A stretch of DNA of 64,000 bases from Staphylococcus phage S6, in sequence record LC680885.1; one strand, given 5' to 3'. A program made the position numbers and the translations under genes. The notes below the pieces were generated by a model. It did no database searches. It saw only the letters and a program-made list of their open reading frames with translations, and had not been told where the DNA came from. Below are positions 7,388 through 52,667 of this stretch, one piece after another. The stretch's first letter is position 1. Each line of letters opens with the position of its first letter.

Positions 7388-8551
7388 ATGTTAGATATTT
7401 TAATCTATTCATTTTCTGGTTTCGCCATTGTAGGGGGCTCTGCAATGGCGATTTATAATGGAAATAAGTTAGTTAAAAAGAAAAAAAGAGTCTCACAAAA
7501 TGAATTAAAACTTAAAGATACAGAAGAATTAATTGATCTCAATGAAACTAAAATAATGGAAAAATTAAATGATTCTTATAAATTAGAAAATGCTTTTGAC
7601 TGTAAGGAAAGATACTACGCTTTACATTATCTATTGAGTCATCCAGAAATGGAATTCTATAAAGAAATAGCCACTCATGTTTATTCAGCTGTTTTAAATG
7701 AAAAAACTAATATTGGAGCTGAATATACTAAAGATTTATTTATTGAAGGGAAATCCTATGATAAAAGATTAGACTTATTGACATTCTCTTTAGTATACAA
7801 AAAAGATAGTAAATTTGAAATTAACAAAGAAAATGGAATTATGGAAGAGTTTAAAGATTTACTTGACACTAATATAGAAGATTTAGAGATGCTAGAAAGA
7901 GAAGGTTTTATATATACGAAAGATGACTCAGGCATATTTTATAAATATTTATTTTTCGGGACTAAAATACTAATCGGTTTAGTTAATTTACATGGTGATT
8001 ATTATATAACTATTATAGATGAAAAAGAAAACGTTTATATTAAAGATATGAAACTTGGTGAAGAGTTGGATGCTTTACAATATTTTGACGGAAGAAGGTT
8101 TTTGTATCATCCATTAGATTTCTTTATATTAGAAGATGGCGAATTACAACTATTAGATCCATATTCATATAATTTAGAACATGTTAACAATAAAAAAATA
8201 ATATTTGATCCTAAGTCTTATGATTCAGAACCTATAGGGAATAAGCGTATAAACTTATATCATGAAGACATAGAATTTAAAAAAGTTCCTTTTAACACTG
8301 AAGGATTATTAAATTATTTAAATAATGATGTTAAAATAGAAAATGATGATTTTATTTATCTTAAAGGAAACAAAGTGGAAAGAAATATAGATAAGAATCA
8401 TTGGTCGAATTTAATAGAAACTAATTATATGATGAATTATAGAGATAAAAAGAAATTCATGAAAAATATTCATAATAAATTAGTAGAAGAAAAAAGAATG
8501 AAAGATATTGAAGAATATAAAAGTTACTCTGAAATAGGGAGAAAGGAGTGA
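7388..8551 (+). CDS. Hypothetical protein
   Basis: SD gaaggtg. The track starts at GTG 7376; ATG 7388 is more likely. Confidence 0.5.
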   Translation: MLDILIYSFSGFAIVGGSAMAIYNGNKLVKKKKRVSQNELKLKDTEELIDLNETKIMEKLNDSYKLENAFDCKERYYALHYLLSHPEMEFYKEIATHVYSAVLNEKTNIGAEYTKDLFIEGKSYDKRLDLLTFSLVYKKDSKFEINKENGIMEEFKDLLDTNIEDLEMLEREGFIYTKDDSGIFYKYLFFGTKILIGLVNLHGDYYITIIDEKENVYIKDMKLGEELDALQYFDGRRFLYHPLDFFILEDGELQLLDPYSYNLEHVNNKKIIFDPKSYDSEPIGNKRINLYHEDIEFKKVPFNTEGLLNYLNNDVKIENDDFIYLKGNKVERNIDKNHWSNLIETNYMMNYRDKKKFMKNIHNKLVEEKRMKDIEEYKSYSEIGRKE

Positions 8552-8558
8552 AGATTCT

Positions 8559-9395
8559 TTGAGTAAAGATTTTTTCTCTCATAATAATGTAAATTATAAA
8601 AAAGATTTAGATAAACAACTTGATGATGATTTAGATAAAATTTACGGTCAACAATCTATGGATACCAATCCTTATGGTCATGTAGGGTTTGTTGATAAGG
8701 ATGTTAGGGAAGCTAAAGAGAAACTTGATAAGCTTAATGATGATTTGAGGCTTAAAGGAAACAGTGCAATGATTGATAGTGATTTAATTCTAAAGGGAAT
8801 TGATAAACGTAAAACTTTAGAAAGGGAAAAATTGAATAGTGTTTATGACAGTATATATGATCTTGGTTCCATAGTTCCTGTAAGTCATAGTTACTATAGA
8901 CAGCTGGATGAGATTAATAAACGTAATACTAATATAAAAAATAACTCTCGTAATTATATTAAAAAAGATTTAGATGAAGAAGCATTGAATAGAAGACAAT
9001 ATAGAAATATGTGGAATAAACCTGTAATGACTTATGAACAAAAATTAATGAATAGATTAGATGAAATAAGAAGTAAGAAAATAACTAATAAAAATAAAGA
9101 AAGATATACTGTTGAAGTTTCAGCTATAATGTATATAACAAGTTGTAAATTTATTCCTGAATTCACTAAAGATGATATAATGAATGCTTATTTTGATGTA
9201 AAAGAAATGATGAACAAAAAAGATAAAATCTTAGGAAATGGTGAAAGTGTAAAAAATTTCACTTTAATATTTGCTAAAGCTATATGGTTTTTAAGAGGAA
9301 ATATTAAAGAAAAGAGTATAATAACAAATCATTCAGCACATGCAATTAATACTAATTTTTTAATAAAAGATTTATATGATCTTAGAGTATTTTAA
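8559..9395 (+). CDS. Hypothetical protein (TTG start)
   Basis: SD gaaaggag 10 nt upstream of TTG 8559. There is no nearby in-frame ATG. Confidence 0.5.
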   Translation: MSKDFFSHNNVNYKKDLDKQLDDDLDKIYGQQSMDTNPYGHVGFVDKDVREAKEKLDKLNDDLRLKGNSAMIDSDLILKGIDKRKTLEREKLNSVYDSIYDLGSIVPVSHSYYRQLDEINKRNTNIKNNSRNYIKKDLDEEALNRRQYRNMWNKPVMTYEQKLMNRLDEIRSKKITNKNKERYTVEVSAIMYITSCKFIPEFTKDDIMNAYFDVKEMMNKKDKILGNGESVKNFTLIFAKAIWFLRGNIKEKSIITNHSAHAINTNFLIKDLYDLRVF

Positions 9396-18953: not shown

Positions 18954-19508
18954 GTGTTTAAAATTTATCCTGATTACGATGAATTTTTAAAGAAAGAGTT
19001 AGATCGCTTTGGAATTGATACAGATAGCATAGCTTATCATTCTGATCTTAATTACAATTATTGTAAAGAGAAATTAGAATCAATTGAAAAGGAAGATAAA
19101 GAAATGGAATTTAATTATTTGAATTTAGAAGATATATCTTTAAATAAAGAAGAGACAAGTGGAGTTATGACTATAAGAGAATTAGTAAATACTATTGATC
19201 ACTTGATATATACAGAAAATGAAGTTACACCTCTATACTACTTCTTTATGGATAAAATCGATTCACTTCCTATGATTAATATGATTACTTATAAAAAGGC
19301 AGCTAACACATTCTATGAAGAGTATAAAAGATATAACACTGGAAATCATTCAGCTTATATAAATATTAAAGGAGAATGGAAACAGTTATCATTTAATCAA
19401 TTTAAAGAATCTTTAAAAGAAGTTTTATTATCTTCACATAAAGAAAGCAATGTTGATAAATTATTTAAAGAGTTAAATAATTTAACTGTAAAAGATAATT
19501 TTTCATAA
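18954..19508 (+). CDS. Hypothetical protein (GTG start)
   Basis: aaagga followed by GTG 18954. Confidence 0.45.
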   Translation: MFKIYPDYDEFLKKELDRFGIDTDSIAYHSDLNYNYCKEKLESIEKEDKEMEFNYLNLEDISLNKEETSGVMTIRELVNTIDHLIYTENEVTPLYYFFMDKIDSLPMINMITYKKAANTFYEEYKRYNTGNHSAYINIKGEWKQLSFNQFKESLKEVLLSSHKESNVDKLFKELNNLTVKDNFS

Positions 19509-19600: not shown

Positions 19601-19629
19601 TTTATAAAAATAAGGAGATGAATTGGATA

Positions 19630-21507
19630 ATGGAAAATAATACATTAAATTCGTATATAAAGGATAATTTTAAATATTTTAAAGATGATAAATTAGAAAT
19701 TGATAAAATATTTAAATTTAAAGATGATAAGACTAAAGAAAAATTTGAAATGTTTTTTAATGGAGTTATATATACATTGAAAAATTTAAGTTATAGTGAA
19801 GTATCTAAAATGTATAATGAAACAATTAAAGAGAAAAGTAATGTTCAAGGTAAAGCTGAAAGTTATATAAATTATTTAAATAATGAATTGAAAAATAGAG
19901 GACTAGATGAAGAAACTAAAAAACTTTATAAAGATTTATTAATGACTTTAAAAGCTGATTTGAAAAGATATAATGCTAATTTAGATGACAGCATTATAAA
20001 TAAATTATTCAAAAATAAGAATATATCAATATCTTATTATAGTTTAATAGTACCTTATAATATTGCTAACGAAATTGAATTTAATAAAAACTATTATAGT
20101 TTTCTTGGATTAGATGATTTCACTAAATTCATAATCTTTCCATATTATCAACTTCTATATTTATCTAAAGGTAATCTAAAAAATATTCATATAAAGAATA
20201 CAGACATAAATCTTCATAGTTACTTTATTGATATAATAAAGAAGTATATTAGAAATTTAATAGATAATAAAGATTTAGATACATTAAAAGAATTATTAGA
20301 CGTATTAACAAATGAGCACGAATATTTAAGATCTCTAAGACATACCGACTATAGAAAAGGTAATGGAAAAAATTTATTAGAGTTACTAATAGAAATGAAT
20401 TTTAATGAATTTAAGGAAATATTATATGAAATGATATATATTATAATGAATAATAACTTGAAAAAAGAATTAAAATCAGAAATGAATTATGATATATACA
20501 AGCATAGTATACTTTTAGTAAGTTTAATGAATAATGAGGTAGAAGAACATAGACAAACTAAATTTAATAGTAAATTTTTAATAGAGAGTAATAATACAAT
20601 TAGAGCAACTGCTATTTCAGATTCATACGGTAAAAATGAGTACTACCAAAATAACTTATTAGGTCACTATATTAATGATCTATATGTAGATAAAAATAAA
20701 ATAAATAAATTTAAAAGAGTTAATAAAGTTAGAAGTTTTAAATCTTTTATTTATTTAACTAACCAAAGATGTATTATCGGTGGTGAGAAATATTATAAAT
20801 ACTTGTATAAATATTTATTTGATCCAAGTAATTTAACTAGAGAAGAGTTTGAAGTATCTACATTATTAATTAAATTAATAACTTGTAAATCTAGTAATCA
20901 ATTAAAGAAAGTTATGGAAAATGCTAAAACTGACTCTGTATTAAATAATATTTTATTTGAAAATGAAATTAGTGATATAATTAAAATTGGTATACAGATG
21001 AATATTAATACTATATTCAATAAAAAAGGTTTAAGTAAAATTAATACAGTTGATTTAACTGTAGGAAATATTGTAAATCCTTTGTTATATAATAAAGCAA
21101 ATGATTATGAAGAACAAACAGAAATCATTGATTCAGTATTTAAAAATTTTACTTATGATATAGATATCAATTTTGATAAATATTATTATAAAGATTTAAA
21201 TGAATATTTTGAAAATAAATTAAATTTAGGTCTTCTAAAAGAATCAAATATAGATATTAGTATTAATATTAATTATAATAAAATTGCAAAAACTATTGTA
21301 AATAATATTAAAGATAAGCTTAGAGGAAAATATCATTTTGAAAGGAATGAATTTATTATTACTTACGATAAGATGAATATTACTCGTTTAACCACTACAG
21401 AATTTTGTAATGGTTTATGTGAATATTTAAGTAAATACTTCCCAGAAGAAGCTAAAAAGTTAAATAAGAGTTTTAGAGCTGAAATTGTAAATACAATGTT
21501 TAGATAA
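19630..21507 (+). CDS. Hypothetical large protein (~625 aa)
   Basis: SD ggagatgaattggataATG. The track start 19618 uses the ATG inside the SD motif. Confidence 0.55.
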   Translation: MENNTLNSYIKDNFKYFKDDKLEIDKIFKFKDDKTKEKFEMFFNGVIYTLKNLSYSEVSKMYNETIKEKSNVQGKAESYINYLNNELKNRGLDEETKKLYKDLLMTLKADLKRYNANLDDSIINKLFKNKNISISYYSLIVPYNIANEIEFNKNYYSFLGLDDFTKFIIFPYYQLLYLSKGNLKNIHIKNTDINLHSYFIDIIKKYIRNLIDNKDLDTLKELLDVLTNEHEYLRSLRHTDYRKGNGKNLLELLIEMNFNEFKEILYEMIYIIMNNNLKKELKSEMNYDIYKHSILLVSLMNNEVEEHRQTKFNSKFLIESNNTIRATAISDSYGKNEYYQNNLLGHYINDLYVDKNKINKFKRVNKVRSFKSFIYLTNQRCIIGGEKYYKYLYKYLFDPSNLTREEFEVSTLLIKLITCKSSNQLKKVMENAKTDSVLNNILFENEISDIIKIGIQMNINTIFNKKGLSKINTVDLTVGNIVNPLLYNKANDYEEQTEIIDSVFKNFTYDIDINFDKYYYKDLNEYFENKLNLGLLKESNIDISININYNKIAKTIVNNIKDKLRGKYHFERNEFIITYDKMNITRLTTTEFCNGLCEYLSKYFPEEAKKLNKSFRAEIVNTMFR

Positions 21508-21523: not shown

Positions 21524-22078
21524 ATGGATGTTAAAAAAACGTTTAATGCAGATATTATGGAGACAGATAGAAGAATTTTCTATAACATTATTAACGTAGA
21601 AATGTCTCTTAGTGATAAAAGAAAAATGTATAATAAAGTCAATGATGAAAATGAGGTTTTAACATATGTATTTGATAGTTACACAGATTACGTATTGATG
21701 GAAAATGAAGGTATAATGACTATGGCAAAAGATTTAAATGATTTCATTAAACATTCTATTTTCGATTACCATTTTTCCTCTTTAATAAAACAATTTTTAC
21801 CTTCGACCAACTTCCGGAATTTTGGAGATTTTGTCCTTATGTTAGAAAGAGAATTATTTGCACCTAATCAAGAAACTTTAAGTCAATTCTCTTCAAAAGA
21901 TGATATAATTTATGTGTACTATAATACTACTCTAAATAAAATAATTATTGTTGATCACATTATGTACTTAAAAGCACTAATGGAGTACGTTAAAGAAGAA
22001 AAAGATTTCTATGAAGATTTATATATAGAATTTGAAAAAGAAGTTAAAAAATATTTAGTTGAAAATAACTTTAAATAG
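21524..22078 (+). CDS. Hypothetical protein
   Basis: SD aaaggagaaattaaagATG. Confidence 0.6.
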   Translation: MDVKKTFNADIMETDRRIFYNIINVEMSLSDKRKMYNKVNDENEVLTYVFDSYTDYVLMENEGIMTMAKDLNDFIKHSIFDYHFSSLIKQFLPSTNFRNFGDFVLMLERELFAPNQETLSQFSSKDDIIYVYYNTTLNKIIIVDHIMYLKALMEYVKEEKDFYEDLYIEFEKEVKKYLVENNFK

Positions 22079-22095: not shown

Positions 22096-22836
22096 ATGAA
22101 TGAATATGGTAAAATTAATAAAAAAGTTTTTAATATAGATCGTAGCAACTTTGAAGTAGTTTTAATGGACTACATGGATACTAAACAGATGAAAAATAAT
22201 TACAATAGAAATATAACCGATCAAGAAAAAATTGATCGGTTAATACCTTTAATTAAACAACAAGAAAATGAACAAGATGAGGGTAGAATATTTGAAAATG
22301 CTAGAAGATATGAACTTCTTTTAGCTAAAACATTTGAATACTCTCTTAATGGAAAATTAGAATTATACAAATTAAAAGAAGTATTAAATTATTACGAAGA
22401 AAAAAATCTTTTTAATATAGTATATCCAAATTTTAAATACACTTTTAATGTAGTTTCACCCAGTAAAGAGTATTCCTTATTGTCTTTAAAAACTAAAATA
22501 TTTTTAATTATAGAAACTATTATAGACTTTATTAAAAATGATTATGTAGAAGATAATCTTTCTATTAAGTTAATTTTAAATTCAGAAGAAATAATGATTG
22601 ATACACTTGATTTAAACGAAAAATCATTGTATAATATCTTTAATCTATCAAGTAAATATACAAATGAATTATTATCTTATAATGGAGATTATTTGTTCTC
22701 ACATGATCAAATAAAACGTATAGAAAATATAAATAATATTTTATTTAACGATATATACAAAGATAAAGATAAAGAAATTTTAGAATTTTTATCTAAGAAA
22801 GTAAAAAATAAATACATTTCAAAATATTTTAAATAA
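22096..22836 (+). CDS. Hypothetical protein
   Basis: SD gaggagag. Confidence 0.6.
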   Translation: MNEYGKINKKVFNIDRSNFEVVLMDYMDTKQMKNNYNRNITDQEKIDRLIPLIKQQENEQDEGRIFENARRYELLLAKTFEYSLNGKLELYKLKEVLNYYEEKNLFNIVYPNFKYTFNVVSPSKEYSLLSLKTKIFLIIETIIDFIKNDYVEDNLSIKLILNSEEIMIDTLDLNEKSLYNIFNLSSKYTNELLSYNGDYLFSHDQIKRIENINNILFNDIYKDKDKEILEFLSKKVKNKYISKYFK

Positions 22837-24276: not shown

Positions 24277-24504
24277 ATGTTTGCTTTATTAGGAATATTA
24301 GCAATAATATTTTTATTATTAATATTTATAGGTTTACCTTTATTTGTCATGGGAGTAGCTTGCATATTTATGTCACTTTATGAAATCTTTGTGGAAAAAG
24401 AAAAAGATATTGATATGCTACTGACATCAACTTATATAACTCTCGGTTCATCAATGGCATTAGGTTTAGCTATCTTTATATCATTTTGTGTTGAAAACAT
24501 GTAA
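24277..24504 (+). CDS. Small membrane peptide, paralog of 24057..24242
   Basis: SD aaaaggagag. Confidence 0.5.
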   Translation: MFALLGILAIIFLLLIFIGLPLFVMGVACIFMSLYEIFVEKEKDIDMLLTSTYITLGSSMALGLAIFISFCVENM

Positions 24505-24531
24505 TCATTTAAAATAAAAAGGAGAAATATT

Positions 24532-26523
24532 ATGTTAAAATTTAATGAAATTAATGAAAGTAATTTAGATGACGTACAAAAATATTTAGAGGAGCAATCT
24601 TATGTATATTATAATACATCAGATCAACCAGAATTAACTGATGAAGAATTTGACAAACTATTAAGAGAATACGAAAAGTTCCGTCCATTTAATGGCGGAG
24701 CTTTACCTTCTAAAGGTAAAAAATTAGTAGATGTTTCACATGAATATCCTGAATTAGTAGGAACAGTTTCTAAGGTTAATTCAGTTGAAGAATTAGCTGA
24801 ATGGATTGAAGAAAAAGGACTAATTAATAGAGAATTATTAATTACACAGAAATATGATGGTAATTCAGTATTAGTTATTTTAACTACTAAAGGAGATTAT
24901 TTAGTAACTAAATCAGCATTAACTAGAGGTAAAGATGGTAAAGGTGCTGACTTAACTGACTTCTTCAGTCATATTAAAATTAAAAAATCAGATGTCGATA
25001 TTAATGCAGTTGATTTATCTGAAGACGATATTGATATCGCTATTAAGTGTGAAGCAGTAATGAGTTATAGTAACTTTAATAAGATTGATGAAGAGTATGC
25101 TAACCCTAGATCAATCGTTGCAGGATTATTAAACTCAGATGATGGATATAAGAAACGTAAGTTAATTAATTTATTACCATTGAGAATTAATATTAGTAAT
25201 AAAGAATTAACTCGACAAGAAGAATTAAATTTAATTTCAGCAATTACTAGTCATAGTACTGTATTTGATCAGCTTGATCCACAGTATAATTTTGTTATGG
25301 AAGATGAACACGATTATAAAGACTTTAATGAATTATATCATCAGATAGCTGATGAAAGAGAGTATTATGAATACATGATTGATGGATTAGTTATTGAAGC
25401 TCTTGATGAAGATGATAGAAATCGTTTAGGTAGATTAAATGATCGTAATAAGTTTGATGTAGCATTGAAATTCCCATATATGACTAAAAAGACTAATGTT
25501 ATTGATATTGAATTTGATGTATCTGAAAATGGTACAGGTAGATATACACCTGTAGTTAGATTTGAACCTATTTATTTTAATGGTGCTAAATGTGAAAGAG
25601 TTTCTATTTCTAACTATAAACGTTTTAAAGAACTTCAATTAGTTAAAGGACAAGAAGTTATTATTGAATATCGTAATGATGTTTTGAGTTATTTAACTCC
25701 ATCTCCTACTAACGAAATTACTGGAGAACCTATACCGTTCATTAAAGAGTGTGTATACTGTGGTGAAGAACTTGAAGTTAATGAAAATGAAACATTTGTA
25801 TCATGTATTAATAACGATTGTGAATGTAGAGTATTAGGTATTATTAACAACTATGTAGATAAAATGAGTATTAAAGGAATTGAATATTCTACTATTAATA
25901 AGCTTTATAAAGGTAACAAACTACCTAACGGAATCCAAAGTTTATATGAAATTGATAAAAACGATATTATGCAAGTAGATACTTTTAAAGAAAAATCAGC
26001 TCAGAATATTATTAATACAATTCATAAAAATAAAGAATATTATGACTATGATGTATTAGGTTCATTAGGATTAAATGGAGTTGGAAGAACTACATTTAAA
26101 TTAGTTACTAAAGTCTATGATCCACAAGAAATAGATTATACAGATTTAAGTATTAAAGATTTAACTTCTATTAAAGGAATCGCTGATATTACTGCTGAGA
26201 TTATTATTAATGGTTATAAACAGAATAAAGATTTAATTGAATTCTTATTTAATGAATTGGATGTTAAATCACTTAAAAAAGAAATGGAAGCTAATAAAGA
26301 TGATTCAGTTGAGCCAATGAATATTGTATTTAGTGGATTTAGAGATGCTGAATTTAAAGAACAGTTAGAACTTAAAGGTCATAAAGTAACTTCATCAGTT
26401 TCAGGTAAGACTGATTTATTAGTTACTCCAGATCCAAATTCAGGTTCATCTAAGATTAATAAAGCTAAAGAAAAAGGTATCAAGATCATTGATATTGAAA
26501 GTTCTAAAGGTGAGTTGTTATAA
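24532..26523 (+). CDS. ligA: NAD-dependent DNA ligase (LigA type)
   Basis: Adenylation motif KYDG (ITQKYDGNSV). Cys4 zinc finger CVYCGEEL...CINNDCEC. C-terminal BRCT (IVFSGFRD...KTDLLV). Confidence 0.85.
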   Translation: MLKFNEINESNLDDVQKYLEEQSYVYYNTSDQPELTDEEFDKLLREYEKFRPFNGGALPSKGKKLVDVSHEYPELVGTVSKVNSVEELAEWIEEKGLINRELLITQKYDGNSVLVILTTKGDYLVTKSALTRGKDGKGADLTDFFSHIKIKKSDVDINAVDLSEDDIDIAIKCEAVMSYSNFNKIDEEYANPRSIVAGLLNSDDGYKKRKLINLLPLRINISNKELTRQEELNLISAITSHSTVFDQLDPQYNFVMEDEHDYKDFNELYHQIADEREYYEYMIDGLVIEALDEDDRNRLGRLNDRNKFDVALKFPYMTKKTNVIDIEFDVSENGTGRYTPVVRFEPIYFNGAKCERVSISNYKRFKELQLVKGQEVIIEYRNDVLSYLTPSPTNEITGEPIPFIKECVYCGEELEVNENETFVSCINNDCECRVLGIINNYVDKMSIKGIEYSTINKLYKGNKLPNGIQSLYEIDKNDIMQVDTFKEKSAQNIINTIHKNKEYYDYDVLGSLGLNGVGRTTFKLVTKVYDPQEIDYTDLSIKDLTSIKGIADITAEIIINGYKQNKDLIEFLFNELDVKSLKKEMEANKDDSVEPMNIVFSGFRDAEFKEQLELKGHKVTSSVSGKTDLLVTPDPNSGSSKINKAKEKGIKIIDIESSKGELL

Positions 26524-26970
26524 ATGAAATATTATAAGGTTAATTATAATGGTATATTGAAAATATTGAATCTAGATGATTTTGAAGATGATAGAATTAT
26601 TGAAACACTTAGTAATATTGAGTTATATTTAAAAGAAGATGAAGAAATTAGATTATTGGATTTATTTAAAAAGCCAACTATAGCAATGGACACTCGAATT
26701 ACAAAAGAAAGAGATAACCTTTATATGAATGGTCATCTCTTTTTAGAAGTTGAGAATGCATCATGTAAACTATGGAGTTACCATATTAATTTAAATGGTG
26801 ACGAAACATTAAATGAAATATATGAAAGGATATATAACGGATACGATAAAATTTTCTCTTTTAATAAAATGAGAGAAGATGGTCTATTATTTTTATATGA
26901 ATATGAACATTATACAGAAATATCTGAAAAAGAATATAAAGAAAATAAGGTTAAAGAAAATTTTAAATAA
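26524..26970 (+). CDS. YK-tail family member A1 (MKYY... ...SEKEYKENKVKENFK)
   Basis: Conserved N-terminus MKYYK.N..GI and C-terminal tail shared with 13 other ORFs. Confidence 0.6.
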   Translation: MKYYKVNYNGILKILNLDDFEDDRIIETLSNIELYLKEDEEIRLLDLFKKPTIAMDTRITKERDNLYMNGHLFLEVENASCKLWSYHINLNGDETLNEIYERIYNGYDKIFSFNKMREDGLLFLYEYEHYTEISEKEYKENKVKENFK

Positions 26971-26988
26971 AAAAGGAGATTTTAAATT

Positions 26989-27441
26989 ATGAAATATTAT
27001 ATTTTAACACAACAGGGGATTGCTGAAGTTTTAGGTATTGATAGTGAATCGGTTTATTGCTATAGAAATTTATTTAGAGATGATGAATTATATTTAAAAG
27101 AAGATGAAGAAATTAAATTTTCAGAAATTATTACTAATCAAACACCGGATATAGAATACAAAGTTGTTGGAACAAATAAAGATACCGTAACAGTGATAGC
27201 TTATATGGAAATAGATTTAGGTGAAGGAGATTATCATCAAATTGGATCTTGCAGAATGAAATTAGATAAAGATAGAACTCTAGAAGAAGTATACAATATT
27301 GTATATGAGAAAATGTCCAATAGAACTTTTTCATTCAATAAAGCTAAAGAAATGGGTATATCTTTATATGAAGAGAGTGATTATGAAGAAGTATCTAAAA
27401 AAGAATATAAAAAATACAAAGTAGAGAATAATTTTAAATAA
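26989..27441 (+). CDS. YK-tail family member A2
   Basis: SD aaaaggagattttaaattATG. C-terminal tail SKKEYKKYKVENNFK. Confidence 0.6.
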   Translation: MKYYILTQQGIAEVLGIDSESVYCYRNLFRDDELYLKEDEEIKFSEIITNQTPDIEYKVVGTNKDTVTVIAYMEIDLGEGDYHQIGSCRMKLDKDRTLEEVYNIVYEKMSNRTFSFNKAKEMGISLYEESDYEEVSKKEYKKYKVENNFK

Positions 27442-27461
27442 TGGAATGAGTTGTTATTGTT

Positions 27462-27941
27462 ATGGAAAAATATTATAGATTAACTTTAGAGGGTGTTAGT
27501 TTTATTTTAAATGATTGTGAAGAAAACGATATAGTTAAATCAACTTATAATGAAGATGAAAATTATGTACATTTAGAATCTTTATTAAATGTAGGAATGC
27601 CTTATGAAACTATATATTTTAAAGATAGACATAAAATAGTATTTAAAGAAAATGAAAATATATTCAAGACATTGATAAATTCAATTAAAAATAAATATTA
27701 TGACTTTGATGATAAAAATATGGAATTTCAAGTAGGCATTGGTGATGATGAAATAAAGGTCAAATCACCGATGCCAGTATTTTCTAAAGTGAATATATTT
27801 AATTTTAAAGTTAATAAAGAAATGGACATTATTGATTTTATGGACAATTATAAAATTAATGTATTAATTAAAGATAAGCATTACATTGAAATTACTGAAA
27901 AAGAATATAAAAATATTATAATTAAAAATACATTTAAATAA
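27462..27941 (+). CDS. YK-tail family member A3
   Basis: Tail TEKEYKNIIIKNTFK. Confidence 0.55.
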   Translation: MEKYYRLTLEGVSFILNDCEENDIVKSTYNEDENYVHLESLLNVGMPYETIYFKDRHKIVFKENENIFKTLINSIKNKYYDFDDKNMEFQVGIGDDEIKVKSPMPVFSKVNIFNFKVNKEMDIIDFMDNYKINVLIKDKHYIEITEKEYKNIIIKNTFK

Positions 27942-27957
27942 TAAGGAGATTTTATAA

Positions 27958-28416
27958 TTGAAATATTATGAATTTAATAAAAAAGGAATTATTAAAATAT
28001 TAGGATTAGATACAGCTTATTTAAGAGAAGATGAAGATATTTTTAGAGAAGGAAATCTTTATTTAAAAGAAAATGAATCAATAAAAATAAAAGATATTAT
28101 AACAAATAAAAAAGATATGAAATTTAATTGCAGTCTTTATGAAGGATCTGAAGATAGCTCATTAATGAAAGCTAATTTAACTTTCAGACATGGGTCAGGG
28201 CAACTTTTATTGAATATTGAATATATTGATTTAAAAGAAATAAAAGATCACACTGTTGAAGAAGTTTACAAATACGCTAAAGATTTAGTTTTAAATAAAA
28301 CATTTTCTTTTAATAAAGCTGAAGAGCTTGGTATATGTTTATATGAAGGAAAAGAATATGAAGAAATTACTGAGGAAGAATATAAAAAATACAAAGTAGA
28401 AAATACTTTTAAATAA
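27958..28416 (+). CDS. YK-tail family member A4 (TTG start)
   Basis: aaggagattttataaTTG. Tail TEEEYKKYKVENTFK. Confidence 0.55.
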   Translation: MKYYEFNKKGIIKILGLDTAYLREDEDIFREGNLYLKENESIKIKDIITNKKDMKFNCSLYEGSEDSSLMKANLTFRHGSGQLLLNIEYIDLKEIKDHTVEEVYKYAKDLVLNKTFSFNKAEELGICLYEGKEYEEITEEEYKKYKVENTFK

Positions 28417-28436
28417 TGAAATGAGGTGTTATTGTT

Positions 28437-28886
28437 ATGGACAAATATTATAAATTAACAGCGGAAGGTATATTTGATGTTTTCAAATTAGATAAAAAAC
28501 ACATTATATTCCCAGAAGATAAAAATACAATAATAGATTTCAGATCAAAGGAAGAACGTATAGAGAAAATTAATGAACTTATATACTTTAAAGATAATCA
28601 AGAAATAACAATAAACTCATTATCTAATTTAACAGACAATATCGTAATAGATAAATCAGGTTCTAAATATACATTTAACCATTTAATAGAAATATCATTC
28701 ACTACTTTTAGTCATAAAAAAAGATATAACAAAACAATCAATGTACCGAATGTATTTAAAGGAACTGTAAGAGAAAATAGTAGTAGAAGTGCCTTAGATA
28801 TACCGATAGATATCAACAATATTGATAAAATAGAATTAACATTTAAAGAATATAAAGATCTAGTAATAAAAGAAACTTTTAAATAA
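28437..28886 (+). CDS. YK-tail family member A5
   Basis: Tail TFKEYKDLVIKETFK. Confidence 0.55.
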   Translation: MDKYYKLTAEGIFDVFKLDKKHIIFPEDKNTIIDFRSKEERIEKINELIYFKDNQEITINSLSNLTDNIVIDKSGSKYTFNHLIEISFTTFSHKKRYNKTINVPNVFKGTVRENSSRSALDIPIDINNIDKIELTFKEYKDLVIKETFK

Positions 28887-28902
28887 TAAGGAGATTTTAT
28901 AA

Positions 28903-29352
28903 TTGAAATATTATAAATTAAATAAGGATGGTTATATTAAATTTTTAGGGTTAGATGTTTTGCCTGGACTTAAAACCTCAATTGTTGAAAAAGAAATAAA
29001 AAATAAAAACTTCATTGTCAAATATTGCAATGGAGCAGATTTTTGTTTTACATTAGATGAAATTAATAAAATGAAAAACAAAGATATTTACCCTAAACTT
29101 GGATTTGAAAGTCTAACTGAAAAAGTTAATCATGAAATAGAAAATAATCCAATAGTATTTGTTAATAGAAAATATGAAGATGCTAAAGCTTTAATTCATG
29201 TAGATTTAATTATTAATAATGAAGAAACTACATTAATGACTATGCCAAGATTTAATATTAATTTTTTAAATCATAATTTGTATATGGAACACTTTGATGA
29301 AATAACAGAGAAACAGTATAAAAATATTATGGTAAAAGATTCATTTAAGTAA
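28903..29352 (+). CDS. YK-tail family member A6 (TTG start)
   Basis: Tail TEKQYKNIMVKDSFK. Confidence 0.55.
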   Translation: MKYYKLNKDGYIKFLGLDVLPGLKTSIVEKEIKNKNFIVKYCNGADFCFTLDEINKMKNKDIYPKLGFESLTEKVNHEIENNPIVFVNRKYEDAKALIHVDLIINNEETTLMTMPRFNINFLNHNLYMEHFDEITEKQYKNIMVKDSFK

Positions 29353-29367
29353 AACTCAATTTAAATA

Positions 29368-29377
29368 TATATTATAA
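29368..29377 (+). promoter_or_regulatory. TATATTATAA motif
   Basis: Exact 10-mer, then hairpin gaaagatgtat...atacatctttc. Confidence 0.35.
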
Positions 29378-29446
29378 AATTGTGAAAGATGTATGATACT
29401 TATACATCTTTCTAAAATATTTATTTAAAGAGAGGTGAAAAAGATA

Positions 29447-29863
29447 ATGAGTTCTAATTTTGATTATTATATATTGCAATCGAGTATTTCAGAAGCTAGA
29501 AAAAGGATTAAGAATAATCTAGATGTAAATGGATATATGGTTATAAGACAAATATTTTTCAGTCATTTAGATTATAAAGATTATTATAATATGTATCATA
29601 AAGTAAATAATGTAGAAGATTATTACAATGATATTATATTAGAAAGTATTAAGGATATTATATTTGATGAAGAAGGTAAACTTAATGAAGAAGTAGCATT
29701 TAGTTTAATTAGAGGTTCTAATTCGAATATATGTGCTTTAATTAAAGATAATAAAGGCAATTACAAAATTTATAAAAAAGATAAATATGTAATTAAAGCT
29801 ATAGAAGATTTATTATCTGAGAAAGATTATAAAAGAATATTGGTTAAAAATACTTTTAAATAA
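29447..29863 (+). CDS. YK-tail family member A7 (divergent N-terminus)
   Basis: SD agaggtga followed by ATG 29447. Tail SEKDYKRILVKNTFK. The track starts at GTG 29435. Confidence 0.5.
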   Translation: MSSNFDYYILQSSISEARKRIKNNLDVNGYMVIRQIFFSHLDYKDYYNMYHKVNNVEDYYNDIILESIKDIIFDEEGKLNEEVAFSLIRGSNSNICALIKDNKGNYKIYKKDKYVIKAIEDLLSEKDYKRILVKNTFK

Positions 29864-29929
29864 TTTGAAAGTGAATGCAACTTACTTTTATTATATTACA
29901 AGTGAGAGTTGGTGATTTTATTGATAAAA

Positions 29930-30574
29930 ATGCATTTAATAAACTTTCAAAAAAGGTCTATGAATAGTTATAAGAAGAATTTAAACACAATTGTACTTTT
30001 CATAGATTATGATAAAAATATTTTCAACCAAATTAATAATCAATTAGTTATAGATGTATTAGGTAATGATACTATAAGATTAAATAATGCTAATTATTCA
30101 TTAATGTTAGATGAGAAGATTTTTAGTTCTGAAAGGACAACAATTGATTTCTATAATAAAATAGTAAATAATGATATATTAAATATTATTAAAGAAAATA
30201 TATCTAATGTAGATAATTATTCTAAATTAAAAGAAATCAATAATATGACTGATAGTGAATTTAATGATATTATTAATAAAGATAATTTATTTAAATGTCA
30301 AAATAAATACTTCAGTATGAATAAAATACCTTATATAGAAAAAGAAATACCTGAAAGTTTTTATCTAGATCATTTTAAAGAGATTAATTTAGATTTTATA
30401 TTTGAGAAGCTTTTTGAAGAGAATAGAGAAGATGAAGAAAAATTAAAGTACGTTTATACTTTAGCTGAATTATTTCTAACACTCAAACAAGGTAAGAATA
30501 TATTTTATAATTATAATAAAGAGGTAGATAAGAAATATTATAGATCTATATTTATAAATTCTTTATTTAATTAA
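29930..30574 (+). CDS. Hypothetical protein
   Basis: The start is uncertain. The track uses 29909; ATG 29930 is also possible. SD is weak. Confidence 0.4.
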   Translation: MHLINFQKRSMNSYKKNLNTIVLFIDYDKNIFNQINNQLVIDVLGNDTIRLNNANYSLMLDEKIFSSERTTIDFYNKIVNNDILNIIKENISNVDNYSKLKEINNMTDSEFNDIINKDNLFKCQNKYFSMNKIPYIEKEIPESFYLDHFKEINLDFIFEKLFEENREDEEKLKYVYTLAELFLTLKQGKNIFYNYNKEVDKKYYRSIFINSLFN

Positions 30575-30599
30575 TATGATAAGAAAGGAGAGAAATAAT

Positions 30600-30893
30600 A
30601 TGAAGAAAATATACGGATTTAAAATAAAATATAATAAAAAAGTGGTAGATACTTTCACTTTTGAAAGTTTTGAAGAAGCTATGAATAAACTAGAATTATC
30701 ATTATTAGAAATTTATGACTCAGAAGATTTTACAACTATGCAATTAATTTTAAACACATATGACATTGAAGAAATTAATGAAGATAGTTTTAAAGATAAA
30801 TTAAGACTAAATCATCTTAATCACATTAAGAATTTTAGTATTGAATTGTTTTCTAAATATATTAACAATAATAAGGAAGAAGGAATTGCGTAA
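30600..30893 (+). CDS. Hypothetical protein
   Basis: SD aaaggagag followed by ATG 30600. The track start 30576 lies upstream of the SD. Confidence 0.5.
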   Translation: MKKIYGFKIKYNKKVVDTFTFESFEEAMNKLELSLLEIYDSEDFTTMQLILNTYDIEEINEDSFKDKLRLNHLNHIKNFSIELFSKYINNNKEEGIA

Positions 30894-31902: not shown

Positions 31903-31948
31903 GCCATAATACACTTAAATTGTGTATTATGGCAAATTATTTATTTTT
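31903..31948. terminator. Bidirectional terminator between convergent genes
   Basis: Stem gccataatacac/gtgtattatggc, flanked by a T-run on the plus strand (aaattatttattttt) and an A/T-run on the minus strand. Confidence 0.65.
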
Positions 31949-32243
31949 CAGGTTTAAAACGGTCTTTAAGTCTAGGATATAGACGTAGATGCGCTTTACG
32001 AGTAGGATCTGTAACAACAATTTGATTTGTTCTAGGATTTCTACGTTTACGCATATCTTCAGGTTTAACTTCAAGGACACCAATTTCAGGGATAATAGTT
32101 TTAGTTTGATCAGCATCATTTGCAGATTCAACAATTATTTCTATCATCTCATTATAAGCATCAACTAGTTCTCTTTGTGTTAATCCAGTACGTCTAGACC
32201 ATTCTCTAAAGAAGTGTTTTTGATCTTGAATTTGATTTAGCAT
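31941..32243 (-). CDS. HU/IHF-family DNA-binding protein (histone-like; TF1-like)
   Basis: GLTQRELVDAYNEMIEII...IPEIGVLEVKPEDMRKRRNPRTNQIVVTDPTRKAHLRLYPRLKD matches the HU beta-arm region (R-x-G-R-N-P-x-T). This is the only minus-strand gene within the plus-strand block. Confidence 0.75.
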   Translation of the reverse strand: MLNQIQDQKHFFREWSRRTGLTQRELVDAYNEMIEIIVESANDADQTKTIIPEIGVLEVKPEDMRKRRNPRTNQIVVTDPTRKAHLRLYPRLKDRFKPEK

Positions 32244-32325
32244 TTTATTAGTTCCTTTCCATATAATATATTTTTAATTTTTTTAGAAAATTGTTAATAT
32301 TTTACTAGCTTTTTTCTAAATTTTA

Positions 32326-32334
32326 TGATATAAT
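32326..32334 (+). promoter_or_regulatory. Extended -10-like element TGaTATAAT upstream of the RNAP beta-N/beta'-N operon
   Basis: tatgatataat lies ~100 nt upstream of TTG 32435, in a divergent intergenic region. No TATATTATAA motif on the plus strand here. Confidence 0.3.
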
Positions 32335-32434
32335 ATTGTTATGGAATTTCATAGTTGTAAAAAAATAATTTTTTGCAATAACTTAAATTTTTATATGGTT
32401 TCGAATTTTTAATTATAAGGAGAGTCAGATATCG

Positions 32435-34057
32435 TTGGGTAATTATTTAAGAAAAATTACGAAGAATATACAAGATGAGGTCAGTACAAAAGAGTCATTT
32501 AATGAGGATGTAATATACTTTAGGGAGAATGAAAACCTAGAAGATATTATATCTGATATTTACAAATCAGTAGAATTTATTAAAGGCGTAAAATTCATTG
32601 ATTGTAAAGTTGTTCCTCCAAGTGAAGTTTATGAGTACAATCAAATGACAGACAAACAATTTAAAGCAAGAGATTTTAGAAAAATCAACGTAGAAGAATC
32701 AAAACTATTAGAAGTTCAAATTACTGTAGAATTTGAATCAGCTGAAGGGGAAAAAGAATTATACACACATAAATTAGATTTCCCTGAACTTATAGAAGGT
32801 CAGTATTATTATATTAATGATAATAAGTTCTTCCCTATCTTACAATTAGCTGATACTGAATTCTATAAACCTAAAGCAAGTACAGTAGTAATGAAAAACT
32901 TATTACAACCATTATCAGTAAATGGTTCTAAAAAAGATGAACTTATTGATGATGATAAGAAAATGCCTAAGAAGTTAAGAGGTAGAACATTATACTTAGA
33001 AGTATTTAATAAAAATAAACCTGTTCCAGCATTTTTATTCTTTATTGCTAAAATGGGTCTAGATGAAACATTTGAATTCTTAGATATTAAAGAATATTGT
33101 GAATTAGTAGATACCAACGATGAAAAAGATGATGAACACTACTATTTTAGAATTAATAATAAAATAACTATTCAAGTTGATAAAGAATGGTTAGATCAAG
33201 ACGATAGATATAGAACTTCTATGGTCTTATGTATTAAAGATTTATTTAAAGGTATGAGAGCAGGATTAGATAAAGTATATGATAAAGAATTCTGGCTTAA
33301 GAATTTAGGATCTGTATTTAGTGGTTCTACTAACGTTGACACTAAAATTGAAAAATCTAATTCTATGATTTTATCATTTGATAGAATTTTAGATAGTCGT
33401 ACTAAAAATATTTCTAGATTAGATCCAGAAGATAAAGAATCAACTTATCATGTAGTTAAATACATGTTTAAAAACTTTGATAATCTTAATTTATTAGATA
33501 ATACAGATTTAGCTAATAAACGTTTAAGAGTATTAGAATACTTAACTTATCCACTGAATAGAAAGAACTCTGATACATCTTATCGTATGATTAATTTCAC
33601 AGATAAGAAACGTACAATTAAAAATCTTAAAGGATTATTCTCAGGTGTACCTCGTGATTTCTTATTAAAAACTATAGGAACATCTGAAGGAATTAGATAT
33701 TCCAATGCAGTTAATACAATTGACTTATTTACTAGAATTCTTAAAATGACTAAAGCAGGTCCACAAACTGCTGTTGATACTAGTAAACCATCTATTAGAA
33801 CTATTAATATCAATAATACTTATTTCGGTAGAATTGATTTAATAGCAACATCTTCAAACAATCCAGGTATTACACGTACATTAACACCATTCTGTGAGGT
33901 TAAAGATCCTGGTGAGAATGGTTCATTCTATTTTGAAAATAAACCTAACATCAGAGAAAATATTGACACAGATAATTTAGATAAACTAGAGAAAGAATCT
34001 GAAGACAATGAAGTTGTATTAGATATTAAAGAAATTGTAGAAGAGGATGACGAATAA
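32435..34057 (+). CDS. Multisubunit RNA polymerase beta subunit, N-terminal fragment (split beta)
   Basis: [25 protein letters not shown] resembles beta [46 protein letters not shown] resembles [31 protein letters not shown] resembles [20 protein letters not shown]. TTG start with SD aaggagag. Confidence 0.7.
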   Translation: [540 protein letters not shown]

Positions 34058-39476: not shown

Positions 39477-39503
39477 AAAGCGTAACATAAGATATTTTAA
39501 TTA

Positions 39504-39513
39504 TATATTATAA
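39504..39513 (+). promoter_or_regulatory. TATATTATAA motif inside the repeated AAAGCGTAAC module
   Basis: aaaagcgtaacataagatattttaattatatattataattatgaag. Confidence 0.35.
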
Positions 39514-39570
39514 TTATGAAGATATAATAATATTAATTATATCTTTAATAAAAATAAAGGAGAAATTAAA

Positions 39571-39849
39571 ATGACAGAATTTGAAAATGAAATTAAAGTA
39601 TCAAAAGAGGAGAAGAAGATTAAAAGATTTATTGATCAAGGTATTGATAATTTATCTGATACTGTGGGAGAGAATATTGAAGGTATTCCATTATCTTTAA
39701 CTGATTATTTTCCTAAAATAAAGAAATTAATTATTAAATTAATTGATCGAGAAGAAAGTGATGAAATTAAAATGACAAATGAATTAGGTGAAGTATTTAA
39801 ATTTAATAGAACTTCACACGATATTTATTTAACATCAACTAAATTTTAA
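39571..39849 (+). CDS. Hypothetical small protein
   Basis: SD aaaggagaaattaaaATG. Confidence 0.55.
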   Translation: MTEFENEIKVSKEEKKIKRFIDQGIDNLSDTVGENIEGIPLSLTDYFPKIKKLIIKLIDREESDEIKMTNELGEVFKFNRTSHDIYLTSTKF

Positions 39850-39895
39850 TGAAAACTTTCTATGATCCAACAATAAAATTAAAGGTGTGGTATGT

Positions 39896-40519
39896 ATGAT
39901 TAAAGTCAATGAGCTATTAACAGAAGTTAAGGAAATAAAAACAAATGACAGTTATACGAAATTAATAAATGAGTATAGGGATATTATTAATGAAGAATAT
40001 ATATCTTATAAACCGTTAAAAGATTATTACAATTTTATTATATATTATCTAGAGAAATCTAGAAATCAAGCATTGGAATCTAACAACTTTAATGAATCCA
40101 ATTTAAATATCAAATTATTAATAGAAGATCTAATGATATTAAAAGATATTGTTAAATCTAATATTTTTGATACTAAAGAAGTAATCAGATCTACTGGGTT
40201 TAAATTAACAAATGGTAGTACATTTGATAGAGTTATCAAATACATTAAAGATAAACTAGATGAATTAATTATAGAAATAAATTCAAATAATTATAAATAT
40301 CAAAATATCTATTTCTATCTACCTGAACTAAATAATCTATTGCATAATACAATTCATATAGAACGTGTTTTAGATAAATATAAGAATAATGTAGATATTA
40401 TTAATATAAATAAATATAATTTATTTGAAATGATGCCTTGTAATGATATTATGGATAAAGATGAATTTTATATAATGGTTAATCATTTATATGATTTAGG
40501 TGTTTTAGAAAAAGCGTAA
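39896..40519 (+). CDS. Hypothetical protein
   Basis: The track starts at GTG 39887; ATG 39896 is also possible. SD-like aaaggtgtgg. Confidence 0.5.
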   Translation: MIKVNELLTEVKEIKTNDSYTKLINEYRDIINEEYISYKPLKDYYNFIIYYLEKSRNQALESNNFNESNLNIKLLIEDLMILKDIVKSNIFDTKEVIRSTGFKLTNGSTFDRVIKYIKDKLDELIIEINSNNYKYQNIYFYLPELNNLLHNTIHIERVLDKYKNNVDIININKYNLFEMMPCNDIMDKDEFYIMVNHLYDLGVLEKA

Positions 40520-40537
40520 CATGTAATAAAATAAGTA

Positions 40538-40547
40538 TATATTATAA
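40538..40547 (+). promoter_or_regulatory. TATATTATAA motif inside the repeated AAAGCGTAAC module
   Basis: Same module as at 39.5 kb. Confidence 0.35.
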
Positions 40548-40606
40548 TTATGAAGAAAGATAAAGTATTAATATCTTTCTAAATAAATCAAATGGAGGAA
40601 TTTAAA

Positions 40607-40777
40607 ATGAAAAAGAATTTATTATTAAAATCAGCAGTGGGATTTGGGTTAGGTATTGTATTAGGTGTAGTAAGTAATAAAATTGATGAAATGGTTATGC
40701 AAAAGGAAATGGAAAAGCAAATCTTTAAAAGAGCTTCAGAAATAACTTTTGAACATCCATTCAATAATCTAAAATAA
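40607..40777 (+). CDS. Small membrane peptide, paralog of 41305..41409 and 42033..42227
   Basis: aaATGGAGGaatttaaaATG: the track start 40592 is the ATG inside the SD. KSAVGFGLGIVLGVV. Confidence 0.5.
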   Translation: MKKNLLLKSAVGFGLGIVLGVVSNKIDEMVMQKEMEKQIFKRASEITFEHPFNNLK

Positions 40778-40858
40778 AGGAGGAAAGAGGATAATTGTTT
40801 TAAAGACCTAATGGACAAGGATCAAGTTCATTAGGTCTATAATTTTCTATGATCCAAA
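40770..40858 (+). repeat. ~88 bp direct repeat, copy 1 (identical to 41402..41489)
   Basis: ctaaaataaaggaggaaagaggataattgttttaaagacctaatggacaaggatcaagttcattaggtctataattttctatgatccaa. Confidence 0.8.
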
Positions 40859-40880
40859 AAATAAAAAGGAGCTAAAATCA

Positions 40881-41195
40881 ATGAATAACAAAACTAAATT
40901 AGCAGAATTAAGAAAAGAATTAAAAATCGTATATTCGGATATACAATTGAGCAAAACAAGTACTATAGAAGAAAGACTTCACAAGAAAAAGGAAAGACTA
41001 ATTAAAGAAATTAATGAAATATTAGAAAAAGATCAAAATGTTTTCGATAGAGAAAAACATATAGCAAGAGTTAAAGATCAGAATAACGATAACATTCACA
41101 AGGGATCAGATGAATTTTCTAAGGCAGGTAGACTCCATAGAAAATATCAGAAGCAAGATAAACACAACATTTTCAATAATCCAGTACAAGATTAA
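40881..41195 (+). CDS. Small basic protein, paralog of 41704..42009 (shared ...KAGRLH...)
   Basis: SD aaaaggagc. Conserved FSKAGRLHRKYQ vs YAKAGRLHQSFQ. Confidence 0.55.
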   Translation: MNNKTKLAELRKELKIVYSDIQLSKTSTIEERLHKKKERLIKEINEILEKDQNVFDREKHIARVKDQNNDNIHKGSDEFSKAGRLHRKYQKQDKHNIFNNPVQD

Positions 41196-41237
41196 AAAGT
41201 TGAATTTGAAAAAGCGTAACGTAAGATATTTTAATTA

Positions 41238-41247
41238 TATATTATAA
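41238..41247 (+). promoter_or_regulatory. TATATTATAA motif inside the repeated AAAGCGTAAC module
   Basis: Same module. Confidence 0.35.
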
Positions 41248-41304
41248 TAATGAAGAAAGAGATTATCATTAACTCTTTCTAATAAATTAAAAGGAGAAAT
41301 TATT

Positions 41305-52100: not shown

Positions 52101-52116
52101 AATAGGGGCAAATAAA

Positions 52117-52650: not shown

Positions 52651-52667
52651 GGAAGTGAGACAGATAA

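Follow-up and report, generated by a model that had tools for sequence, protein, structure and literature searches.

Among the closest described counterparts of the system reported here are the internal proteins of T-even phages. Our subject is a tandem array of seven genes (array A) at 26524-29863 of a 64,000-nucleotide stretch of Staphylococcus phage S6 (sequence record LC680885.1; the whole stretch is called the window below), whose products all end in one short C-terminal tail. In T-even phages, IPI, IPII, IPIII and the products of the variable ip locus share a capsid targeting sequence that directs them to the prohead, and they counter host defences (PMC3012670). As in S6, these are fast-evolving small proteins, otherwise unrelated, that come from a variable locus and bear a short terminal peptide with I/L-x-E; the two sets have no sequence similarity. 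In T4 the signal is an N-terminal stretch of about 10 residues that is cleaved off, whereas in S6 the module takes up about 20 residues at the C-terminus and has a predicted fold. T4 internal proteins are abundant in virions, whereas the S6-type genes lie in early-type blocks and no member was found among the virion proteins of the related phage DC4, whose proteome is shallow.

Lineage-specific expansions in jumbo phages have been described as well, and Bacillus phage G carries about 35 zinc-ribbon genes (PMC7824862). Like the S6 family, these are dozens of lineage-confined paralogs with a suspected role in regulation or conflict. The phage G type has a recognisable whole-protein domain, whereas the tail-bearing proteins have only their termini in common and a predicted fold without known match. 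The SUKH/Imm immunity arrays of polymorphic toxin systems are also tandem sets of small, diverged paralogs of about 150 residues, in which cassettes are rapidly gained and lost through recombination at conserved ends. These arrays are bacterial and lie beside toxin genes, whereas the S6 array has no Pfam immunity match and no adjacent toxin gene. Short C-terminal elements are known from the amphipathic helices of MinD and FtsA, from SsrA- and MuA-type ClpX tags and from the clamp-binding peptide QLxLF. They share with the S6 tail hydrophobic residues at the extreme C-terminus, flanked by lysines and common to different proteins; the S6 tail is longer, is predicted to pack on the protein, and has neither LAA nor Q-L-x-L-F. 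The published accounts examined of the phages PALS_2, DC4 and MarsHill/Madawaska/Machias, of S6 endolysins and of glycosylase inhibitors make no mention of the tail family, a comparative review of jumbo phages leaves it unmentioned too, and the database entries for its genes call the products hypothetical proteins. Variable early loci and expansions confined to one lineage are already known; a strictly C-terminal module on about 10% of a phage proteome, with a fold that has no known relatives, adds a further form to them.

We found that all seven array products end in x[ST]x[KE][EQD]YKxxx[VI][KE]xxFK followed by the stop codon, as had been claimed in an earlier reading of the sequence (below, the original prediction). 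The seven consecutive open reading frames (ORFs) are all present as + strand genes in the ORF list. They are numbered W1 to W7 here and given with the non-synonymous to synonymous substitution ratio (dN/dS) against orthologs and with matches to a hidden Markov model (HMM) of the tail.

26524-26970, + strand: W1, 148 residues, array-A member (MKYYKV... ...ISEKEYKENKVKENFK); PALS2_076 is 98% identical; dN/dS 0.14; tail HMM match
26989-27441, + strand: W2, 150 residues, array-A member, cassette variant; tail HMM match; identical to BDE75746.1 (phage S6)
27462-27941, + strand: W3, 159 residues, array-A member after a type B spacer; MarsHill ortholog, dN/dS 0.19; absent from PALS_2
27958-28416, + strand: W4, 152 residues, array-A member, TTG start; modelled with AlphaFold2 (mean confidence score pLDDT 81.8, pTM 0.73)
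28437-28886, + strand: W5, 149 residues, array-A member; PALS2_079 is 98% identical; dN/dS 0.34-0.38
28903-29352, + strand: W6, 149 residues, array-A member, TTG start; ortholog dN/dS 0.41-1.08
29447-29863, + strand: W7, 138 residues, tail-bearing, with a body that has no detectable relation to W1-W6

The N-terminal motif M(K/D)KYY..GI..LGLD, which had been assigned to all seven genes, was found in six of them, which begin M(E/D)KYY..G(I/V/Y), and not in W7. The start of W7 is most likely ATG 29447 (MSSNFDYY) and not the listed GTG 29435, because this GTG falls within the Shine-Dalgarno sequence GAGAGGTG; the PALS_2 and DC4 annotations give the gene the same start. The spacers are of two alternating types, as predicted, in the order A/B/A/B/A. 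Type A reads (T)AAGGAGATTTTA.. and type B reads TGRAATGAGKTGTTATTGTT, each with a ribosome-binding site (Shine-Dalgarno). No ortholog of W2 above 52% identity was present among 50,697 GenBank phage records, and a contig index look-up returned no match to its exact sequence.

The region 24500-30600 is 98.4% identical to Staphylococcus phage PALS_2 over 88% of the region length, and 88-97% identical to eight other Staphylococcus jumbo phages. The S6 window is very AT-rich (about 24% GC). Phage S6 belongs to the AR9/PBS1-like group, for which uracil-containing DNA has been reported or proposed. Its genome encodes multisubunit RNA polymerases of the split type, a recombinase resembling UvsX and a ligase that depends on NAD.

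The tail belongs to a module of about 20 residues with the consensus h-x-E-[IL]-[TS]-E-K-E-[YFIV]-K-x-h-h-[VI]-K-x-x-F-K-COOH. At the DNA level, the pattern TAYAAR-N10-T-N10-TTYAARTAR, which covers tail and stop, occurs 10 times in the window, compared with 0.08 expected from shuffled sequences. Over 48 distinct tails, with positions counted from the C-terminus, the best conserved residues are F(-2) (47/48), V/I(-6) (44/48), K/R(-10) (42/48), K(-13) (40/48), K/R(-1) (38/48) and E(-12) (35/48), and position -11 is hydrophobic in all 48. The tail had been described as strictly conserved and positively charged. Its conservation stood; its charge proved only weakly basic, with a net value of 0 to +4 over 14 residues.

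Next, we examined the recovery of the array by an HMM trained on nothing but the second-region tails of PALS_2 (15 sequences), with no overlap with the window. This independent model recovered all seven array proteins, each with the match at the extreme C-terminus, and its sole further match in the window ends four residues short of a C-terminus. The array proteins scored 11-21 bits with this model and 19-30 bits with the full HMM. The tail is also more widespread than the 14 proteins of the original prediction, since at least 13 and up to 18 ORFs of the window carry it, and about 30 in the complete PALS_2 genome. In PALS_2 all of these are + strand ORFs, and they fall into two regions, 67-102 kb and 169-202 kb. 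The 13 clear HMM cases in the window are the seven array genes and those starting at 21524, 48332, 50941, 51552, 52117 and 52668; the weaker cases start at 18954, 22096, 53523 and 54196, plus 29930 by eye. The genes outside the array are as follows.

21524-22078, + strand: tail-bearing protein, 184 residues (..FEKEVKKYLVENNFK); tail HMM match
48332-48790, + strand: tail-bearing protein, 152 residues (..LTEKEYKNSIVVKNFK); tail HMM match
50941-54906, + strand: second cluster of six tail-bearing genes, 177-258 residues (50941-51552, 51552-52100, 52117-52650, 52668-53444, 53523-54182 and 54196-54906); tail HMM matches
18954-19508, + strand: weak tail case, 184 residues (..LTVKDNFS); tail HMM match
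22096-22836, + strand: weak tail case (..NKYISKYFK); tail HMM match
29930-30574, + strand: gene after the array, about 214 residues, with a degenerate tail (..KKYYRSIFINSLFN); weak case, seen by eye

The last two genes of the second cluster (53523-54182 and 54196-54906) have weaker tails that end FI. The gene at 29930-30574 is not among the tail-HMM matches; its ending is kept in Machias, SA1, PB50 and MarsHill. As a separate observation, a 629-residue protein at 19618-21507, annotated 'golgi autoantigen' in PALS_2, ends ..KSFRAEIVNTMFR, which may be a degenerate tail on a far larger protein.

To compare the bodies of these proteins, the last 22 residues were removed before BLAST. Proteins of the W1, W2 and W4-W6 types then formed one cluster, the W7-type proteins formed another, and W3 and every other tail-bearing protein were singletons. 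W3 is joined to the other array members solely through the N-terminal motif. An HMM of array-A bodies matched members of its own subfamily at E = 1e-20 to 1e-41 and no other tail-bearing protein. When subfamily profiles were compared with hhalign, the probability was below 1% without the tails (0.2% for W7), and with the tails included the tail alone aligned, over 17-32 columns (P = 5.6e-5). These comparisons indicate that the array consists of six true paralogs, W1-W6, and of W7, which shares only the module with them. The proteins are small (about 90-265 residues) and most are acidic overall (isoelectric point, pI, 4.6-5.3). An N-terminal aromatic pair co-occurs with the tail (19/32 vs 26/167, p = 7e-7). 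Apart from this pair, the tail appears from the comparisons to be the only element common to about 30 proteins.

The original prediction had named a DNA-level repeat artefact, to be recognised from synonymous and non-synonymous change, as the result that would refute a protein-level tail. For the 16 tail codons among 13 paralogs we found a proportion of synonymous differences (pS) of 0.47 and of non-synonymous differences (pN) of 0.295, indicating that the tail is constrained as protein. The codons themselves vary: Val(-6) is written GTT five times and GTA five times, and Thr/Ser(-15) is written with five different codons. Among pairs of identical tail residues, 21% use different codons, compared with 33% expected from codon usage. 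Codon choice is free at Val, Thr and Ser, and the motif is therefore kept as a peptide; pS/pN and codon variation together rule out a DNA-level repeat artefact as the origin of the tail. The predicted fast evolution of the genes was borne out, with ortholog dN/dS from 0.13 to 1.1 and two to seven copies in related phages. Across these phages dN/dS was 0.13-0.19 for W1, W3 and W4, and the higher values were those of W5 and W6 given above. Judged by these substitution patterns, the array ORFs are real genes, some of which are relaxed or diversifying.

We then modelled W4 with AlphaFold2, using an alignment of the window's 15 members. The model runs from an N-terminal strand through two helices and a hairpin (E3-6, H8-14, H19-24, E34-37 / E41-43) to a long three-stranded antiparallel sheet, a helix, a strand and the tail. 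The tail itself is modelled as a strand at 134-137 (YEEI) and a helix at 139-150 with pLDDT 88-97, and the last two residues have low confidence (pLDDT about 50). The high confidence of the modelled tail argues against a free, disordered tag. The earlier proposal of a shared targeting or interaction tag holds in part: the tail as sole shared element fits interaction or targeting, and its modelling as a folded strand and helix does not fit a free tag. A second AlphaFold model, for 51552-52100, was poor (pLDDT 58) and again ended in a strand and a helix.

A Foldseek search of BFVD with the W4 model gave three matches at E ≤ 0.001, namely a 97% identical homolog and two paralogs of 23-25% identity, which we took as family members from their length and their 23-97% identity. 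The overall TM scores were 0.75-0.92, with 0.75-0.78 for the two paralogs. Since independently built models of distant paralogs superpose, the array-A fold is reproducible. The same model had no match in the PDB at E ≤ 0.001, and the predicted fold would so far be private to the family. A natural array-A mini-member of 91 residues, present in five contigs of the Logan assemblies, lacks the central three-stranded sheet and retains a strand and a helix at its N-terminus and a helix, a strand and the tail at its C-terminus. Because this member has the terminal elements only, the central sheet is a variable insert in a conserved terminal core. We also assigned the faces of the tail helix from ideal helix geometry, using the consensus of the 48 tails and the helix limits of W4. 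One face would then carry Y(-11), h(-8) and h(-7), and the other would carry V(-6) and F(-2) together with the lysines at -13, -10, -5 and -1.

The family was not recognised by general databases. For 35 members (10 from the window and 25 further ones from PALS_2), Pfam-A and PHROGs gave no match above chance. A profile search of PDB sequences gave no match at E ≤ 10. A whole-family profile searched against 1.84 billion representative proteins gave 23 matches of lengths as in the family; the 16 of these 23 that were inspected could all be recognised as members, encoded by Staphylococcus jumbo phages or by metagenomic contigs like theirs. This search is driven by whole-length similarity and is blind to relatives that share the tail only. 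A word-indexed protein search likewise returned only Staphylococcus jumbo-phage proteins. For the metagenome search of the tail that had been suggested with the original prediction, two degenerate DNA patterns were run over IMG/VR. No multi-copy locus was found; the patterns gave 0 and 4 isolated matches, and the four are probably due to chance. The Bacillus phage AR9 (246 kb) shares the gene order UvsX, RNA polymerase beta, ligase, HU, and has no tail ORF, compared with 27-31 in PALS_2 under the same tests. On the evidence of these searches, the family is confined to Staphylococcus AR9-like jumbo phages.

The comparison with related phages showed that the array turns over. Counting family genes between the ligase gene and a conserved gene of about 215 residues, there are 7 in this window, 6 each in PALS_2, PB50 and SA1, 5 each in MarsHill and DC4, and 2 in Machias. 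W2 and W3 stand in place of the single PALS2_077. Near-identity with PALS_2 ends after ATGAAATATTA of W2 and returns at the start codon of W4, and the block edges with MarsHill lie 22 nucleotides before the W2 stop, 53 nucleotides into W4 and 41 nucleotides before the W5 stop. The first array gene of DC4 (UFVDC4_00167, 8024-8917 of the compared stretch) is an in-frame fusion of two members, in which the first tail breaks off at ..EEYKKYK and the frame continues across the ribosome-binding site (GELI) to the MNYYKL of the next gene; either the tail was lost naturally or the sequence contains an error. In MarsHill (4557-4985 of the compared stretch) and SA1 (4559-4987), a second W7-type gene with a degenerate tail (..AIEDITNECEVLYFKRS) opens the array, and MarsHill gene 2 has a truncated tail (..VTEKEFNYRKF). 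The junctions between genes, each made of a 3' end, a spacer and the next 5' end, are the only long DNA repeats of the array, with 77-80% identity.

27319-27511, + strand: junction repeat of the W2 3' end, type B spacer and W3 5' end; 80% identical to 28294-28486 (W4/W5 junction)
27867-28011, + strand: junction repeat of the W3 3' end, type A spacer and W4 5' end; 77% identical to 28812-28956 (W5/W6 junction)

The recent duplication of a two-gene unit, proposed from the alternating spacers, was mistaken in its timing, because the W2 and W4 proteins are 44% identical and only the junctions keep 77-80% DNA identity. Breakpoints and repeats coincide at the junctions, and cassettes are therefore exchanged by recombination at the conserved ends.

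To consider when these genes may be expressed, we used the AR9-type early promoter consensus TATATTAT, taken from the MarsHill preprint. It occurs at about 15 intergenic sites on the + strand of the window, each 30-80 nucleotides upstream of a gene.

1901, 2693, 16681, 19539, 29368, 31112, 37147, 39199, 39504, 40538, + strand: TATATTAT sites
41238, 45197, 49295, 50494, 50896, + strand: further TATATTAT sites
29368-29412, + strand: early-promoter-like TATATTAT (29368-29375), then a 13-bp stem-loop (29384-29412; -14.1 kcal/mol, z = -3.67)

The intergenic copies are embedded in a longer common pattern, (a)aTATATTAT-N4-6-TGAg. Directly behind most of them comes a stem-loop of 9-13 bp, which could belong to the 5' end of early transcripts or could terminate the upstream unit. 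W1-W6 lie downstream of the site at 19539 with none intervening, the 29368 motif sits in the gap of 82 nucleotides between W6 and W7 (94 nucleotides to ATG 29447), and the site at 50896 is ahead of the second tail-bearing cluster. In PALS_2, most family genes are about 0.1-9 kb downstream of a same-strand motif, and one is at 15.7 kb. These co-directional blocks downstream of TATATTAT are consistent with the early expression that had been predicted, as far as a promoter motif can indicate it, and suggest early transcription by the virion RNA polymerase. A sigma-70 promoter scan of the window was uninformative in such AT-rich DNA (124 found vs 137 expected). The sites at 39504, 40538 and 41238 (39480-41260) are each preceded by AGCGTAACAT/G.. 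and followed by AATTATGAAG, and look like a repeated intergenic unit before small genes.

Together, these observations lead us to favour, tentatively and as somewhat short of probable, the view that the tail-bearing proteins are a lineage-specific, fast-diversifying, probably early effector-like family whose terminal module serves both as a structural clasp and as a shared docking surface. The module would consist of a beta-strand and an alpha-helix, usually with an aromatic N-terminal strand (MKYYKL). The Y(-11), h(-8), h(-7) face would presumably pack onto the protein's own body, and the V(-6)/F(-2) face, rimmed by conserved lysines, would dock one shared partner together with the free C-terminus. 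The hypervariable bodies, in W1-W6 the inserted three-stranded sheet, would give specificity, and the outcome would be an effector-like repertoire for host takeover or counter-defence. As a side effect at the DNA level, the conserved ends (tail, ribosome-binding-site spacer and MKYY codons) would be points of homologous recombination at which related phages may acquire, lose, swap or fuse cassettes. That the tail is strictly C-terminal and its lysines are conserved speaks for a common partner, and a tail that is the only element of otherwise undetectably related proteins fits a shared interaction or targeting function. We infer the early timing from the promoter motif, and from helix geometry that the basic-hydrophobic face is exposed; a shared partner and a biological role for the family are inferred likewise.

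Several points weigh against this view. The exposed face is a prediction of ideal helix geometry, and the needs of folding by themselves could conserve a terminal helix that packs well. Broken or degenerate tails exist in nature, in the DC4_167 fusion, in MarsHill_2 and in W7-type copies ending ..ITNECEVLYFKRS; the module is thus dispensable in some members, unless those copies are decaying. The case for early expression comes from a short motif, and as a bare octamer TATATTAT is unenriched in this AT-rich DNA (43 found vs 41.7 expected). Finally, the second model is poor (pLDDT 58), and a single architecture shared by all tail-bearing proteins is so far a possibility.

A portable targeting signal that delivers about 30 cargo proteins to the prohead for packaging and injection, to the membrane as an amphipathic helix, or to a protease is an unlikely explanation, yet one to be taken seriously. 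It would account for a tail that is the only element common to otherwise undetectably related bodies of 92 to 265 residues, for its constant place at the C-terminus, where F is the last residue but one in 47/48 distinct tails, and for the low model confidence of the last two residues (pLDDT about 50). Prohead proteases of the T4 type follow the site rule L/I-x-E, which the [IL]-[TS]-E before KEYK resembles, and such a protease is encoded in these phages; the T-even internal proteins are a precedent (PMC3012670). Against such a signal, the tail is modelled as folded into the protein with pLDDT 88-97, and the genes lie in early-promoter-type blocks and not among the structural genes. In DC4, UFVDC4_00167-00171 are not among the 15 virion proteins, although that proteome is shallow (26 peptides mapped). 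Degradation signals of the SsrA class end LAA, and the F-K ending is unlike them. We give a slightly lower probability to the form of this idea in which the module is an address label that assigns roughly 30 diverse effectors, or about 10% of the proteome, to one fate, with loading into the capsid for co-injection, a membrane or other site, and timed destruction as the possible fates. Such a label, if real, would parallel at the C-terminus the capsid targeting sequence of T4, in jumbo phages with reported or proposed uracil-DNA, and could be put to use in delivering foreign cargo.

Alternatively, the tail-bearing proteins may have no common function, the tail being the most constrained remnant of one ancestral fold, kept for folding, and the array a neutral or weakly selected expansion. 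The whole-length fold predicted for W1-W6 includes the tail as an integral element, the N-terminal strand co-occurs with it as a common architecture predicts, and the weak second model gives the same strand-helix ending. Yet the best conserved positions include four lysines and a glutamate, which as surface residues are usually free to vary, the bodies of 92 to 265 residues give no profile-profile signal, and the stop stays one residue after F in 47/48 distinct tails; we regard this explanation as doubtful, and a little more so than the address label. We consider it improbable that the proteins are small nucleic-acid-binding regulators with a degenerate Xis/MerR-type winged helix at the N-terminus and a lysine-rich tail that contacts DNA or RNA. 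The start MKYYKLTxxGIAEVLGIS... does resemble an excisionase-type strand-helix-turn-helix, the order of the N-terminal elements in the W4 model fits, and the tail has conserved lysines. But Pfam gave no helix-turn-helix family at a threshold as loose as E = 1, conservation is lowest in the putative recognition helix, which W3 lacks, the members are for the most part acidic (pI 4.6-5.3), and W7 and most other tail-bearing proteins lack such an N-terminus. Least probable of all is that concerted evolution at the DNA level, through gene conversion or recombination, homogenises tail, spacer and start with no selection on the peptide. The junctions are indeed the most similar DNA of the array (77-80% over 145-193 nucleotides), mosaic breakpoints between phages fall in them, and the 21% of identical residues with differing codons is somewhat below the 33% expected. 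This process is largely refuted as the main cause by the frequent synonymous differences (pS 0.47) and freely varying fourfold-degenerate sites. Against it, too, tails are conserved to the same degree in scattered single genes and in a second region, about 100 kb distant, where other DNA flanks them, and reading frame and stop position are invariably retained.

Some specific candidates were tried and rejected. No profile or fold match to a Xis/MerR winged helix (HTH_17) was found for the N-terminus of W1-W6. A ClpX/SsrA-type degradation signal does not agree with the ending F-K, the helical tail (pLDDT 88-97) and the lack of LAA, and a sliding-clamp-binding peptide does not agree with the 48-tail consensus, which has no Q and no L-x-L-F. 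The idea that the array encodes the inhibitor of uracil-DNA glycosylase (Ugi, p56 or SAUGI) missing from these phages had no sequence support, and no such inhibitor appeared in the fold searches; published screens found no known type of such inhibitor in Staphylococcus jumbo phages (PMC10303552).

Other features of the window and of AR9 were recorded separately. In AR9 (82205-84846) the Ugi gene g104 lies between the HU-like gene and the gene for the N-terminal beta subunit of the non-virion RNA polymerase, and the corresponding slot of the S6 window (31941-32435) has no gene. At 55104-55667 there is an extremely acidic, low-complexity protein of 187 residues, nearly all Asp, Glu and Ser, which stands at the switch from + to - strand genes, with a sign change of the GC skew at about 56 kb. 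A protein of 449 residues at 97-1446, with repeated Cys-x2-Cys...Cys-x2-Cys units and a DUF559/Vsr-type endonuclease-like ending, is probably a homing endonuclease.

Roughly a tenth of the genes of these Staphylococcus jumbo phages are members of a family that goes undescribed in the databases and papers searched, and its terminal module is conserved far more than the remainder of each protein. A tail pattern of this kind usually means that many proteins plug into one machinery, and its partner would explain many unannotated genes. The phages concerned are considered for therapy against S. aureus, and the partner could reveal new activities in host takeover or anti-defence. The array also illustrates cleanly how, in nature, cassettes are shuffled by way of conserved gene ends. 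Should the module turn out to suffice as a signal, it could be used to engineer cargo delivery or protein turnover in these phages.

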